From a virus (Duplodnaviria; Heunggongvirae; Uroviricota; Caudoviricetes), in the IMG/VR virus record IMGVR_UViG_2563366964_000003: DNA of 16,306 nucleotides, one strand, 5' to 3'. The position numbers were made by a program, and so were the translations under genes. The number at the start of each line of letters is the position of its first letter. The stretch's first letter is position 1. The notes beneath the pieces are model-generated. The model ran no database searches, had not been told where the DNA came from, and saw nothing but the letters and a program-made list of their open reading frames with translations. Shown piece after piece: positions 2,977-10,795 of the stretch.

Positions 2977-3031
2977 GGTGATGCTGCCAACTTACTGATT
3001 TAGTGTATGATGGTGTTTTTGAGGTGCTCCA

Positions 3032-3307
3032 GTGGCTTCTGTTTCTATCAGCTGTCCCTCCTGTTCAGCTACTGACGGGGTGGTGCGTAACGGCAAAAGC
3101 ACTGCCGGACATCAGCGCTATCTCTGCTCTCACTGCCGTAAAACATGGCAACTGCAGTTCACTTACACCGCTTCTCAACCCGGTACGCACCAGAAAATCA
3201 TTGATATGGCCATGAATGGCGTTGGATGCCGGGCAACCGCCCGCATTATGGGCGTTGGCCTCAACACGATTTTCCGCCATTTAAAAAACTCAGGCCGCAG
3301 TCGGTAA
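3032..3307 (+). CDS. insA: IS1 InsA (transposition repressor / N-terminal part of the InsAB' transposase), 91 aa
   Basis: Translation [43 protein letters not shown]... is canonical InsA. Confidence 0.92.
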
Positions 3308-3729
3308 CCTCGCGCATACAGCCGGGCAGTGACGTCATCGTCTGCGCGGAAATGGACGAACAGTGGGGATACGTCGGGGCTAAATCGCGCCAGCGCTGGC
3401 TGTTTTACGCGTATGACAGGCTCCGGAAGACGGTTGTTGCGCACGTATTCGGTGAACGCACTATGGCGACGCTGGGGCGTCTTATGAGCCTGCTGTCACC
3501 CTTTGACGTGGTGATATGGATGACGGATGGCTGGCCGCTGTATGAATCCCGCCTGAAGGGAAAGCTGCACGTAATCAGCAAGCGATATACGCAGCGAATT
3601 GAGCGGCATAACCTGAATCTGAGGCAGCACCTGGCACGGCTGGGACGGAAGTCGCTGTCGTTCTCAAAATCGGTGGAGCTGCATGACAAAGTCATCGGGC
3701 ATTATCTGAACATAAAACACTATCAATAA
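3226..3729 (+). CDS. insB: IS1 insB reading frame (expressed as the InsAB' transposase by -1 frameshift at the A6C motif, about 3285-3291)
   Basis: Translation ...[50 protein letters not shown]... is canonical InsB; slippery aaaaaac present in the insA/insB overlap. Confidence 0.88.
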
Positions 3730-3744
3730 GTTGGAGTCATTACC

Positions 3745-3752
3745 TAAGAATT
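3745..3752. repeat. Right copy of the 8-bp target-site duplication TAAGAATT flanking IS1
   Basis: Identical to 2969-2976; overlaps the stop codon of the 142-aa gene. Confidence 0.75.
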
Positions 3753-4179
3753 ATTCAATATCTATTCCTGTAATATCTTTTATCTTTTTCCTTGCAAAGC
3801 CTTTTGCTAGTGATTTTGAAACACTTATTAGTGTACTAATTCCCTCATCCTTAAAGTTTGTTTTTATAGTTTGCCAGACCTCCTTTTGACGCAAGTCAGC
3901 AATAAAATCATGCCCTCTTGCTGTCAACCTCAGTGGTACTTCGATCCAACTATATCCAACACCTTCCCCTAACTCGTTGGACATTATATGACCGAACCCA
4001 GGTTTTCCATCAACCCTGACTATTAATTCGTAGTCGCATAATAATCGCATATGGAAAATAAAATTTTGGTCATATCTATTAAAGCCATTATCCTCTAGTT
4101 CACTAAGCATCGTGTCAGGGCCATGAGTTTTTTCGAATGCGATAAGTAGATCTTTTAGATATTGCTGGTCTAATTTCAT
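3751..4179 (-). CDS. Hypothetical prophage accessory protein, 142 aa, no family recognised with certainty (possibly a DUF2513-like winged-helix phage protein)
   Basis: Clean ORF with strong GGAGG Shine-Dalgarno 6-7 nt upstream of ATG; lies in an AT-rich accessory segment of the leftward operon. Confidence 0.65.
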   Translation of the reverse strand: MKLDQQYLKDLLIAFEKTHGPDTMLSELEDNGFNRYDQNFIFHMRLLCDYELIVRVDGKPGFGHIMSNELGEGVGYSWIEVPLRLTARGHDFIADLRQKEVWQTIKTNFKDEGISTLISVSKSLAKGFARKKIKDITGIDIE

Positions 4180-4207: not shown

Positions 4208-4546
4208 TTATATCATTAATTTTGTTTCGTGCCAGCCTTTGGTCACCCAGCATTGTGAGTCACCATTACACGGGCATGAATTAACAGGAACTCTCTCGCC
4301 GCACTTACCGCAACGTTTTCTGCTGATCGATTTTATACGCCAGCGCACACGTGCATCATCCTGGCGGCTCAGTAACGCGATGTACTCACCAAACTCGTAA
4401 GGCGCATGCCTGAAGCGGCGCGTGGCTCAGTTACGATCCAGCATTTCAATTTCCTGAGCATCAAGTACAAGCTCCAGCTTACGCATACCGGATGATGCTT
4501 GCTTGGCTCTCTGATCGACTTTGCGCTCTGCTGATGATTTAGCCAT
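4208..4546 (-). pseudogene. Opal-interrupted small ORF: 39 codons (MAKSSAERKVDQRAKQASSGMRKLELVLDAQEIEMLDRN), in-frame TGA at 4427-4429, then 72 further in-frame codons ending in a CxxC...CxC zinc-ribbon-like tail; possibly ea8.5-like
   Basis: AGGAAA Shine-Dalgarno before the ATG; open reading continues in the same frame after the TGA to TAA at 4208-4210. Confidence 0.45.
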
Positions 4547-4740
4547 TCTGCTTTTCCTGCATTAGGAGAAAGACAATCATGGCGGCGCGGATACTTCCGG
4601 TATCTTTTTACTCGATATTACCCTTCAATGGCACATACAAGAAGAGAGCCATCAACAGGAGTGAGTGAGGAATCGACAACCAGCAACGCTTAATTATCTA
4701 TAGTGTCGTATTTGCTTCATAAAATATGGCGAATAACACA

Positions 4741-4778
4741 AAGCCCGCAGCAGCTCATTGTGCGGGCTTTTCTTATAC
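4741..4778. terminator. Intrinsic terminator hairpin (aagcccgca ... tgcgggctt) with T-rich tails on both strands; likely terminates the 4840-5454 gene
   Basis: 9-bp perfect stem followed by ttttcttat on plus and by a U-rich run on minus; about 65 nt downstream of the minus-strand stop at 4840. Confidence 0.5.
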
Positions 4779-4839: not shown

Positions 4840-5454
4840 TTATCTAAAAGTCTTTCCACTTTTAACGTCTAGGTATATTCTGTTCGACAACGTCATTCCT
4901 CCGCAATATGTGAAATAGATGTTTTTCCCCTTATTGCTTGATGCCATCCACCCTCCGATTTCCTTAAAGTCGCTTTCCGTGCAGACCCCTTCGTTTATTA
5001 ACTTCCTAGCTGCCGAAGAAAACTCTTTTTTGTATATACGGTAGTCATCAGATCCTTTGATTAAAGTATCATCTCCGCTCGCATTTTCAGCAGGATCTGA
5101 TGGCCTTTCACTGCTAAGATCACTAAGTTTAACCCATTCTGAAAACTTGCCATTGACGATTCCGTTTTTTCTTGTGCAGGATTTATTACCTTCTTTAATA
5201 TATTCGCTTTCCCCTCCCACACATGAGGCTGAATATGGCTCAGTTATACGAACCCATTCACCTTTTTTTTCTAGAAAATCTACGCCTTCCCTGAAAAATA
5301 GTTTCCCAGCCACTCCACATTTACTTGAAGGGCAGGTATGTCTTTCCGTTCGATCAACAACAACCCAAAGTCTTGATTCATTTTTTGCCATTGCCGATGG
5401 TATTTGAGATGAGACAATTAACGTAAGCCCTAAAATTAGTATTGATTTTTTCAT
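4840..5454 (-). CDS. Secreted or periplasmic hypothetical protein, 204 aa, with signal peptide (MKKSILILGLTLIVSSQIPSAMA) and six cysteines
   Basis: Sec-type signal peptide with AMA-K cleavage motif; AAGGAA Shine-Dalgarno; own terminator; AT-rich codon usage unlike flanking λ genes. Confidence 0.7.
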   Translation of the reverse strand: MKKSILILGLTLIVSSQIPSAMAKNESRLWVVVDRTERHTCPSSKCGVAGKLFFREGVDFLEKKGEWVRITEPYSASCVGGESEYIKEGNKSCTRKNGIVNGKFSEWVKLSDLSSERPSDPAENASGDDTLIKGSDDYRIYKKEFSSAARKLINEGVCTESDFKEIGGWMASSNKGKNIYFTYCGGMTLSNRIYLDVKSGKTFR

Positions 5455-5752: not shown

Positions 5753-6004
5753 TCACGCTGCTCGTTGAGTTTTGATTTTTGCTGTCTCCAGCTCAACACG
5801 CAGTTTCCTCACCGTTAGCGCAATATCCTCGTTCTCCTGGTCGCGGCGTTTGATGTACTGCTGGTTTCTTTCCCGTTCATCCAGCAGTGTCAGCACAATC
5901 GATGGTGTTACCAGCTCATGGAAAAGGTCCGCGTCAAATCCCCAGTTGTCATGCATTGCCTGCTCTGCCGCTTCACGCAGTGCCTGAGAGTGAATTACGC
6001 TCAC
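5753..6004 (-). CDS. Hypothetical early-left protein, 83 aa as written, in the position of λ ea22; frame stays open for 50 more codons after the TGA stop (to 5592), so this may be an opal-truncated longer gene
   Basis: GTG start overlapping the upstream stop (GTGA coupling); coiled-coil-like C-terminus; in-frame continuation read by hand. Confidence 0.55.
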   Translation of the reverse strand: MSVIHSQALREAAEQAMHDNWGFDADLFHELVTPSIVLTLLDERERNQQYIKRRDQENEDIALTVRKLRVELETAKIKTQRAA

Positions 6005-6965: not shown

Positions 6966-7636
6966 TGCTCCCCAAATACAAAACCAATTTCAGCCAGTGC
7001 CTCGTCCATTTTTTCGATGAACACCGGCACCATCTCGTCAAAACTCGCCATGTACTTTTCATCCCGCTCAACCACGACATAATGCAGTCCTTCACGCTTC
7101 ATACGCGGGTCATAGTTGGCAAAGTACCAGGCATCTTTTCGTGTCACCCACATGCTGTACTGCACCTGGGCCATGTAAGCCGACTTTATGGCCTCGAAAC
7201 CACCGAGCCGGAACTTCATGAAATCCCGGGAGGTAAACGGGCATTTCAGCTCAAGGCCATTGCCGTCACTGCATAAACCATCGGGAGAGCAGGCGGTGCG
7301 CATACTTTCGTCGCGATAGATGATCGGGGATTCAGTAACATTCACGCCGGAAGTGAATTCAAACAGGGTTCTGGCGTCGTTCTCGTACTGTTTTCCCCAT
7401 GCCAGCGCCTTAGCATTAACTTCCGGAGCCACACCGGTGCAAACCTCAGCCAGCAGGGTGTGGAAGTAGGACATTTTCATGTCAGGCCACTTCTTTCCTG
7501 AGCGGGGCTTGGCTATCACGTTGTGAACTTCTGAAGCGGTGATGACGCCGAGCCGTAATTTGTGCCATGCATCATCCCCCTGTTCGACAGCTCTCACGTC
7601 GATCCCGGTACGCTGCAGGATAATGTCCGGTGTCAT
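6956..7636 (-). CDS. exo: λ exonuclease (Redα), 226 aa, intact
   Basis: Translation [50 protein letters not shown]... matches λ Exo over its full length. Confidence 0.97.
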
Positions 7637-8079
7637 GCTGCCACCTTCTGCTCAGTGGCTTTCTGTTTCAGGAATCCAAGAGCTTTCACTGCTTCGGCCT
7701 GTGTCAGTTCTGACGATGCGCGAATGTCGCGGCGAAATATCTGGGAACAGAGCGGCAATAAGTCGTCATCCCATGTTTTGTCCAGGGCAATCAGCAGAGT
7801 GTTAATCTCCTGCATGGTTTCATCGTTAACCGGAGTAATGTCGCGTTCCGGCTGACGTTCTGCGGTGTATGCGGTATTTTCGACAATGCGCTCGGCTTCA
7901 TCCTTGTCATAGATACCAGCAAATCCGAAGGCCAGACGGGCACACTGAATCATGGCTTTATGCCGTAACATCCGTTTGGGATGCGACTGCCACGGCCCCG
8001 TAATTTCTCTGCCTTCGCGGGTTTTGAATGGTTCGCGGCGGCATTCATCCATCCACTCGGTAACGCAGATCGGATGATT
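7633..8079 (-). pseudogene. bet: bet (Redβ) 3' fragment: C-terminal part only (...NHPICVTEWMDECRREPFKTREGREITGPW...KVAA); N-terminal third missing
   Basis: C-terminal translation matches λ Bet; upstream of codon N (8079-8077) the frame hits TAG and homology to Bet is lost. Confidence 0.9.
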
Positions 8080-8201
8080 ACCGGTTCGCTACCAGGGAAG
8101 AACGGGAAGGAAAGGTGAGCACGAATCTGATTTTCAAGGAGTGTCGCCAGAGTGCCGCGATGAAGCGGGTGTTGGCATTTTATCGCGGCAATTTTCAATA
8201 G
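8079..8201 (+). pseudogene. ren: ren 3' remnant (encodes ...YRFATREEREGKVSTNLIFKECRQSAAMKRVLAFYRGNFQ), fused directly to the bet truncation point
   Basis: Plus-strand frame matches my recollection of the λ Ren C-terminus (YRFATREEREGKMSTNLVFKECRQSAAMKRVLA...); recall-based. Confidence 0.6.
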
Positions 8202-8238
8202 ACTATGTACATAAAAATATCATTTTTTTAATACATGT

Positions 8239-8430
8239 CTAATTATTGGACGAAATTGGTTTTTGCTTTGGTTTAGTTAGCCTAGCAATCAAGCCAGAGG
8301 CAATAATGATGATCCAAGCAATTTGATGCAATGCTACTCCAATATAAGAACCTTTATAGATAATAAAGGCATAGATCGCTAGAAACGAAATAAATATCCA
8401 TAACGAAAGTTGATAAATTTTGGCGCGCAT
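8239..8430 (-). CDS. Possible small membrane protein (63 aa from ATG; two hydrophobic segments)
   Basis: ORF in AT-rich cargo DNA, divergent from the lipoprotein operon; weak Shine-Dalgarno; could be a chance ORF in AT-rich sequence. Confidence 0.3.
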   Translation of the reverse strand: MRAKIYQLSLWIFISFLAIYAFIIYKGSYIGVALHQIAWIIIIASGLIARLTKPKQKPISSNN

Positions 8431-8686
8431 ATTTAATCCAATCAATCAGAAAGACGAGTAATCATAGAGGTACTATCACCCGGGTAACTATTGCTATTAT
8501 GAACGGATAGGATAGAGGCTTCAATAACATATGCATCAAGTATGATGGAATATGTAGGTGAAAATGACTTGTGTCAAATTTGTGGAAATGAGTACCATGT
8601 TTCTCTGAAATTGATGTCGTTAATGGCTAGTGATAGTGAACTTTTTTACTTTATAATTCCTTTGGTTATAACAATAAGGTAAATTT

Positions 8687-9247
8687 ATGAAGAAGATAAT
8701 ATTATTAGCCATGATTATTGGTTCTTTAACAGGTTGCGCTAGTGTGCCACCATTGAATTTTTCAACACCTAACGTGGGAGTTAGCCAGAAAAAAATAGAT
8801 GCTGAAATTAAGTCATTAACGGTATCACTTGCTCGTCCAGATGAGCAGAAAGGGGATATCACTGCTGGTATGGAGGCTATAACTCCAATTTGGCGTGAAT
8901 CTTTGCAGGAAGCACTCGACCGAATGACTATTTTTCGTGATAGTTCACCAAATACGGTTAGCTTAAATGTTAAAGTGTTGGCTCTTGACGTTCCTGCTTT
9001 TGGTGTTTCAATGACAACTAAAGCAATTGCAAGGTATGAAATAATCAACCGTGCGAATGGTGATATTATATATACGCAGGATATTGAGTCTACCGGTACT
9101 GTTCCAGCCAGTTACGCATTCTACGGTATTGTTCGAGCACGCGAATCTGTTAATCGCGCGGTGCAAAACAACATAACGCAGTTCTTGCAAGCATTAGAAA
9201 GTGTTGATCTTTCTCGTCCAATGTTTCCTGTTAGGGTAGCTAAATGA
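8687..9247 (+). CDS. Lipoprotein of unknown family, 186 aa (signal peptide plus lipobox LTGC)
   Basis: MKKIILLAMIIGSLTGC lipobox; AAGG Shine-Dalgarno; stop overlaps the start of the next gene (ATGA). Confidence 0.75.
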   Translation: MKKIILLAMIIGSLTGCASVPPLNFSTPNVGVSQKKIDAEIKSLTVSLARPDEQKGDITAGMEAITPIWRESLQEALDRMTIFRDSSPNTVSLNVKVLALDVPAFGVSMTTKAIARYEIINRANGDIIYTQDIESTGTVPASYAFYGIVRARESVNRAVQNNITQFLQALESVDLSRPMFPVRVAK

Positions 9248-9696
9248 AGCGATTATTCGTAATTGCTCCACTCTTAGTGTTGGTTGGATGCGCACAAAAT
9301 ATATCGCCAAATAGTTATTCTGTTGGCTCTGTGGGCATGGTTAATCGAACTATCGCTGGTACAGTTATTAGTGCTAGGGGGGTTGATATCAGTGGGACTT
9401 CCGCGTTAGGCGGGACTGCTGGGGCTGCCGTGGGGGCAACCGCTGGTTCTGCGCTTGGTGGGGGAGTTCGTTCTAATATCGTTGGTGCCGTTGGTGGTGC
9501 AGTCATTGGTGGTATTGCCGGGGCAGCAATCGAATCTTCAGCAACAAAACAAACAGGCATGGAATATGTTGTCGAAACTGAGAATGGGAATTTAATGACC
9601 ATTGTTCAAGGCAAAGATCCGTTATTTACTCAAGGAAGTAAGGTCCTTGTTTTATACGGAAACCCTTCTCGCATAATAACAGACCCGCGTCACTAA
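9244..9696 (+). CDS. SlyB/Pcp-like glycine-zipper outer-membrane lipoprotein, 150 aa (lipobox LVGC)
   Basis: Lipobox; glycine-zipper stretch (IVGAVGGAVIGGIAGAAI); C-terminal KQTGMEYVVETENGNLMTIVQGK resembles the SlyB C-terminal region (KTQGVELEIRKDDGNTIMVVQKQ) as I recall it. Confidence 0.8.
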   Translation: MKRLFVIAPLLVLVGCAQNISPNSYSVGSVGMVNRTIAGTVISARGVDISGTSALGGTAGAAVGATAGSALGGGVRSNIVGAVGGAVIGGIAGAAIESSATKQTGMEYVVETENGNLMTIVQGKDPLFTQGSKVLVLYGNPSRIITDPRH

Positions 9697-9788
9697 CATA
9701 CCTTTTGATTTTGTAAAATCAATTCGTAATAATAAAGTCATCGGAGCTTGAACAACTCCGGTGACTTCTGCGCTAAACGGGGACGTTT

Positions 9789-9890
9789 ATGCGCACATAC
9801 AATCCAAACTCTCTTCTCCCTTCACAGATGCAGAAATGCACCTGCGATTTTTTGCATCCAGCGTCTGACCTCTGCGGAGGTGAAGCGTGA
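9789..9890 (+). CDS. ylcH: Small DLP12-type protein YlcH-like, 33 aa ([33 protein letters not shown])
   Basis: Short ORF whose stop overlaps the ybcN GTG start; resembles remembered YlcH. Confidence 0.55.
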
Positions 9891-10512: not shown

Positions 10513-10795
10513 TTTGAGAAAAGCAGCGCGTGGTCGGGAATGCCAGGTAAGAATCCCTGGCGTATGTAATGGCAACCCTGAAACGTCTGTACTGGCACAT
10601 ATCCGGCTGACTGGATTGTGCGGCACCGGTACGAAACCGCCAGACCTGATTGCCACCATTGCATGTTCTGCCTGCCACGACGAAATCGACCGCCGCACAC
10701 ATTTTGTCGATGCTGCATATGCAAAAGAATGCGCGCTGGAAGGTATGGCGAGAACACAGGTTATCTGGCTGAAAGAGGGGGTTATTAAGGCGTGA
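10505..10795 (+). CDS. ybcO: YbcO, DLP12-type nuclease-like protein (DUF1364), 96 aa
   Basis: [35 protein letters not shown]... with conserved Cys motifs; ATG at 10505 inside the longer tracked ORF. Confidence 0.9.

Follow-up and report, generated by a model that had tools for sequence, protein, structure and literature searches.

We propose that the interrupted small gene described here is an ordinary pseudogene, namely a single-origin TGT-to-TGA nonsense allele of a small regulator gene of the ribbon-helix-helix (RHH) plus Cys-rich type that resides in a degraded lambdoid prophage, and we put the probability of this reading at about 0.9. The locus itself is already known, being annotated in RefSeq as a pseudogene with an internal stop, and we regard as established the ancestral codon, the single origin of the allele and its spread, the relaxed constraint on it and the absence of recoding signals. 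In what follows "the window" refers to the whole stretch of 16,306 nt that was analysed.

The interrupted frame and its ancestral codon

Translation of the window from 4546 to 4208 on the minus strand gives MAKSSAERKVDQRAKQASSGMRKLELVLDAQEIEMLDRN, then the TGA, then ATRRFRHAPYEFGEYIALLSRQDDARVRWRIKSISRKRCGKCGERVPVNSCPCNGDSQCWVTKGWHETKLMI and a terminal TAA, such that 39 sense codons are followed by the opal codon and 72 further open codons, and the latter include the Cys cluster CGKCGERVPVNSCPCNG (Table 1). The list of open reading frames contains a 39-aa ORF beginning with ATG at 4427–4546. While an open extension of 72 codons would be expected with a chance of about 0.017 from base composition alone, the decisive evidence that it is genuine former coding sequence rather than a chance frame is its gap-free homology to intact genes of 112 codons, with which the full 339-nt frame aligns at 91–97% DNA identity. 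The arrangement reported in the initial annotation, in which a 39-codon ORF with a ribosome-binding site ends at a TGA and the same frame stays open for 72 more codons with a Cys cluster, is confirmed at the coordinates given there.

Intact homologues of 112 aa carry TGT (Cys) at codon 40, the position at which the window has TGA, and hence the lesion is a third-position T-to-A change and did not arise from either TGG or CGA, the two sense codons that the annotation had put forward as ancestral. Its proposal of a nonsense mutation in a once-intact gene is borne out by these TGT-bearing homologues and by the RefSeq/PGAP label. In NZ_CP022959 an "internal stop" pseudogene is called by PGAP at the matching coordinates, and besides ATCC 8739 the same call appears in 13C1065T, in strain 1409 and in the 43-kb circular record of SZQ1.

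Table 1. Coordinates of the pseudogene, its parts and its start signal in the window
Feature	Position	Strand	Description	Basis
Whole pseudogene	4208–4546	-	112-codon frame of the phrog_536 family, interrupted at codon 40	Translation, gap-free alignment, PHROG match, PGAP "internal stop"
In-frame opal codon TGA (codon 40)	4427–4429	-	Derived from TGT (Cys) by third-position T>A	
Codons still translated (39)	4430–4546	-	N-terminal helix, presumed beta-strand segment and the larger part of helix A, as modelled for the intact protein	ORF list
Relic of codons 41–112 plus TAA	4208–4426	-	Formerly RHH helix B and Cys-rich domain; now 3' of the stop	
Shine-Dalgarno-like AGGA	4555–4558	-	8 nt 5' of the ATG	By eye from the sequence
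Codon 43 (CGC)	4418–4420	-	Synonymous variant linked to the TGA	Haplotype comparison

The prophage and its neighbouring relics

The window matches a lambda-like prophage that, in the E. coli strain ATCC 8739 and in relatives of this strain, is integrated beside ybhC. The pseudogene belongs to the early leftward operon and is situated within the exo-xis stretch, which is dispensable, and the leftward order of genes is exo, DUF1317, DUF1382, a hypothetical gene, TraR/DksA, an ead/Ea22 fragment, a 204-aa ORF, a UmuD-like fragment, the pseudogene, DUF2513, a small ORF, xis and int. The prophage of the window is clearly defective and carries a copy of IS1, an ea22-like pseudogene, a UmuD-like remnant and a cut bet gene. 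The IS1 element (approximately 2977–3744) is complete and lies between the DUF2513 gene (3751–4179, minus strand) and the small orf55-like ORF beside xis; in the ATCC 8739 record CP022959 an IS1 is found elsewhere, with the ea22 fragment and the 204-aa ORF as its neighbours, and hence the window derives from a strain or isolate that is related but not the same.

The ead/Ea22-like gene (5753–6004, minus strand) ends at a TGA (5753–5755) beyond which the same frame is open for about 50 more codons (about 150 nt, to approximately 5590). It is evidently the second opal-interrupted frame mentioned in the initial annotation, and PGAP treats it as a frameshifted, incomplete pseudogene. Directly upstream of the pseudogene there is a short internal fragment of a UmuD or S24-peptidase-like gene (4621–4686, minus strand), labelled partial by PGAP, under the name "DNA repair protein" or "S24 family peptidase", and representing another relic of the same module. 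The 204-aa ORF (4840–5454, minus strand) is conserved in the module and annotated only as hypothetical; it has an N-terminal signal-peptide-like sequence, MKKSILILGLTLIVSSQIPSAMA, and a GC-rich hairpin with a T-run is situated just past its stop at approximately 4735–4770. The truncated bet gene (7633–8085, minus strand) retains 139 C-terminal codons, and similarity to the ATCC 8739 record ends at about 8085. The region 8086–9700 then carries two lipoprotein-like ORFs on the plus strand (8687–9247 and 9244–9696), followed by nin-region genes (ninB-like at 9887 and rusA-like at 10792), and hence the prophage appears to be without the gam-to-replication functions at this location.

Two public records that contain the gene also deserve comment. 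The genome of phage Chlobot (PP925838, 2861–3339) carries the 112-aa gene in its intact form, with TGT, and only the last 46 codons of the gene are annotated, as a "transcriptional regulator", with an out-of-frame "UmuD-like protein" ORF placed over the first part; this is likely a mis-annotation. The 43,337-bp circular "plasmid" of E. coli SZQ1 (NZ_CP174001) is lambdoid prophage-like and contains the same exo-xis module with the TGA allele. A partial host diguanylate cyclase gene adjoins its int gene, and the record resembles a prophage, either excised or mis-assembled, more than it does a plasmid.

The intact protein and its family

The intact form, represented by an HS4 homologue as the query, matches the PHROGs family phrog_536, labelled "transcriptional regulator", over residues 1–111 (hmmscan E = 3.2e-54). 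A protein search returned 718 clusters at 90% identity from Escherichia, Salmonella, Citrobacter, Klebsiella, Enterobacter, Raoultella and Edwardsiella, and only 148 clusters were obtained in an exhaustive search of 50% representatives. The best 120 of the 718 clusters are mostly 112 aa in length, are called "hypothetical protein" or "phage protein" by their named sources, and have no Pfam domain except in one extended protein. An alignment of 55 diverse homologues shows that C79 and C82 are invariant and that C99 is at least 90% conserved. All three are kept in the downstream frame of the window, and C99 is lost in another subgroup of TGA alleles. Position 40 is R, M, A, T or N in about one third of the distant homologues in the same alignment, and thus Cys40 is not a catalytic residue.

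According to the structural model, the intact protein has helices at residues 5–19 and 30–42 and helix B at residues 52–74, and C79, C82, C91, C93 and C99 lie in the Cys-rich domain. A fold search with this model returned ribbon-helix-helix proteins. Pfam gave no RHH match at E values up to 1, and the only NCBIfam match was to YbfE, an RHH protein, at E = 0.07 and 13.5 bits versus a cutoff of 62, with nothing above threshold. The phrog_536 family has no Pfam or NCBIfam model and we found no experimental characterisation of it; an exo-xis modelling paper that was checked for a description of the family treats a different protein, Gp05 of phi24B. From the model and its fold matches we infer that the intact 112-aa protein comprises an N-terminal RHH DNA-binding domain and a small Cys-rich domain that probably binds zinc, and its predicted architecture is most likely that of a dimeric transcriptional regulator. 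The initial wording "RHH-like / zinc-ribbon" is thus backed by both the structural model and the fold search. Known proteins with which it may be compared are those of the RHH (Arc/MetJ/CopG) group, including the Arc repressor, AmrZ, the ParD antitoxins, the N-domain of TraM and YbfE of E. coli. With members of phrog_536 such as WP_016245495, WP_001129736 and the "transcriptional regulator" of phiV10 / TL-2011b, the window frame shares its length, the invariant C79 and C82 and the Cys-rich motif, but unlike them it encodes only 39 residues, codon 40 being TGA in place of TGT. The window copy does not have an uninterrupted frame of about 112 codons, and it is a pseudogene derived from a member of phrog_536 rather than a functional member.

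The Ea8.5 protein of phage lambda, to which the gene had been likened, has a hybrid homeodomain/zinc-finger fold (PDB 2M7A; PMC8614690). The likeness is one of map position only, in that a small Cys-containing accessory gene lies between ea22 and xis in the lambdoid exo-xis region, and there is no similarity in sequence (BLASTP E = 6.2). A phmmer search against all PDB chains gave 0 matches at E values up to 10, and no Ea8.5 homologue was present among the fold matches listed. Together these searches rule out homology to lambda Ea8.5.

Spread, probable decay and alternative readings of the TGA allele

Complete genomes were queried with a 55-mer centred on the TGA, for which every 28-nt megablast seed must contain the A. 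Among 5,426 complete E. coli genomes, 64 match the TGA 55-mer, three of them being separate assemblies of ATCC 8739, and the intact near-clade 55-mer matches 79 genomes at 99% identity or higher, with 276 more of the distant HS4 type, such that the TGA at codon 40 (TGA40) accounts for about 45% of the near-clade copies in complete E. coli genomes. The allele is also present on 19 IMG/VR contigs, and gene calls of exactly the 39-aa product exist on 804 public contigs. In 13C1065T the prophage with the TGA allele occupies the torI/dsdC site instead of ybhC. As the allele is found in these 64 genomes, in at least 8 haplotypes with differences of up to about 3%, and at two prophage attachment sites, the mutation cannot be termed recent, as had been suggested, nor is it private to one strain. 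Codon 43 is CGC in all 8 of the TGA haplotypes (19 sequences) and CGT in all 63 of the TGT haplotypes (99 sequences), and two additional E. coli loci that were fetched separately and lie outside the haplotype count (SZQ1 and L128) also combine TGA with CGC. This complete linkage points to a single origin of the nonsense allele followed by its spread, and by the evidence of the haplotypes it is an old variant that travels widely with the prophage module. Among isolated phages the search yielded one near-clade copy, that of Chlobot with its intact TGT, which is uninformative on the viability of phages that carry the TGA. The initial annotation had called for a check on read support, and it is true that only one base differs from the intact alleles, but the probability that this base is a sequencing or assembly error, with a true TGT and an intact gene, is negligible given that the TGA recurs in independently sequenced complete genomes, the three ATCC 8739 assemblies among them, as well as on the IMG/VR and public contigs, and is always linked to a second, synonymous variant.

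Segregating nonsynonymous and synonymous changes were compared for each set of haplotypes. The 8 TGA haplotypes have 13 nonsynonymous and 3 synonymous changes (pN/pS approximately 1.2), with 8 and 3, respectively, when only codons 41–112 are considered, which are too few to exclude weak constraint, and the 56 haplotypes of the intact HS4-type (sister) clade have 23 and 41 (pN/pS approximately 0.15). The TGA haplotypes differ significantly from the intact clade in this respect (Fisher p = 0.0016), although the counts are small, the segregating sites are non-independent events, and the intact set consists of best tblastn hits, which is a bias against broken copies. Some variants are common to TGA and intact TGT alleles (for example, in L118), indicating recombination, which blurs the counts. 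The cysteine codons that vary in the intact clade (C82, C91 and C93) change synonymously only, and the near-invariant Cys99 is lost (C99Y) in 4 of the 8 TGA haplotypes, with G80R, G80D or R85K in others. One TGA allele (L103) has an extra 1-nt deletion in addition to the stop. Near-clade copies without TGA40 have independent lesions, including conversion of Cys79 to TGA (L109) and a +1 frameshift (L112), and in four near-clade loci without TGA40 the 3' end is replaced after codon 104. Close relatives with other lesions of the gene are the IMG/VR contigs L109, L112, L120, L125, L116, L114 and L103. Within this prophage module the gene has been broken repeatedly, and the overall pattern, as far as sequence comparison can reveal it, fits neutral decay after a nonsense mutation, not programmed readthrough or selenocysteine insertion.

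The other option in the initial annotation was a readthrough arrangement, in which leaky or programmed decoding of the UGA by near-cognate tRNA-Trp would provide a small, regulated amount of working full-length Trp40 protein. Of the 20 sequences examined that have the TGA, all but one keep the frame 3' of it open, the allele is frequent (64 genomes and 804 contigs), and as position 40 is not invariant in the family a substitution there might be tolerated. We consider such an arrangement quite improbable, however, since the stop is limited to one single-origin allele of one clade and all other members seen have a sense codon, the TGA alleles show the neutral pN/pS value given above in place of the low value of intact genes, and Cys99 is gone in half of the haplotypes. 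Moreover, the 71-nt segment that surrounds and follows the UGA folds with a minimum free energy of −20.8 kcal/mol versus a shuffle mean of −19.9 (z = −0.31), with 71 of 200 shuffles folding at least as well as the native sequence, no stable hairpin or SECIS stem-loop was seen 3' of the UGA, and an Rfam search at E values up to 10 returned no recoding or SECIS match, only two chance snoRNA matches. Of the stop codons, UGA is the leakiest in E. coli, and since substitutions are tolerated at position 40, trace amounts of full-length Trp40 protein may still be made from the TGA allele. The insertion of selenocysteine at the TGA by SelB and tRNA-Sec might be considered because all intact alleles have Cys (TGT) at exactly this position, the classic Cys/Sec pairing, and E. 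coli has the Sec machinery. Bacterial Sec insertion requires a SECIS hairpin directly 3' of the UGA, and with no SECIS-like fold or Rfam match, a Cys40 that varies among distant homologues and a frame that evolves neutrally, selenocysteine has virtually no likelihood. With genes of programmed opal readthrough, as in the A1 coat extension of Q-beta, and with bacterial selenoprotein genes such as fdhF, the gene shares an in-frame UGA before a long open frame and a Cys in homologues at the UGA position, but it differs from them in that its homologues do not share the stop, neither a SECIS nor any other structure is present, and the extension shows no constraint.

In a split gene with two working products, these would act separately, namely the N-terminal peptide of 39 aa and/or a Cys-rich one of 46 aa that begins at an in-frame GTG (4348). 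Both pieces have been called as genes in public records, and a 40-residue PHROGs family (phrog_34005) matches residues 1–40. The shorter piece is predicted to stop within helix A and would be without RHH helix B, no Shine-Dalgarno-like sequence is evident by eye 5' of the GTG, and the Cys-rich part gathers damaging changes (C99Y and G80R/D) in the TGA alleles; an independent 46-aa ORF was rejected on the latter two grounds. Database proteins that match residues 1–40 were considered as a natural short architecture and likewise rejected, as they are heterogeneous truncations and frameshift or recombination tails, not a conserved short form. Two working products are thus very unlikely.

According to the pseudogene reading, the ancestral gene encoded a 112-aa protein of a type common in temperate phages of Enterobacteriaceae, and a single T-to-A change converted codon 40 from TGT to TGA. 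Ribosomes would still initiate at the ATG (4546), and release factor 2 would terminate translation at the TGA and release a 39-residue peptide. Without RHH helix B and the whole Cys-rich domain, this peptide could not build the RHH dimer core and is presumably inactive, while the 72 codons behind the stop would remain untranslated and drift. The mutation arose once and spread with the prophage module by descent and recombination. That the disruption was adaptive and not neutral, such that the lysogen or the prophage benefits from losing the regulator or from down-tuning it through a leaky UGA, might be read from the several independent knockouts (TGA40, the TGA at codon 79, the +1 frameshift and the replaced 3' ends) and from the large near-clade share of TGA40, but we think it unlikely.

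The importance of these results is limited, in that a candidate recoding event is removed and the existing RefSeq pseudogene call is confirmed. As by-products, TGT (Cys) can now be named as the ancestral codon, and the uncharacterised family phrog_536 can be described as an RHH plus Cys-rich, probably zinc-binding, protein, which may aid the annotation of lambdoid exo-xis regions.
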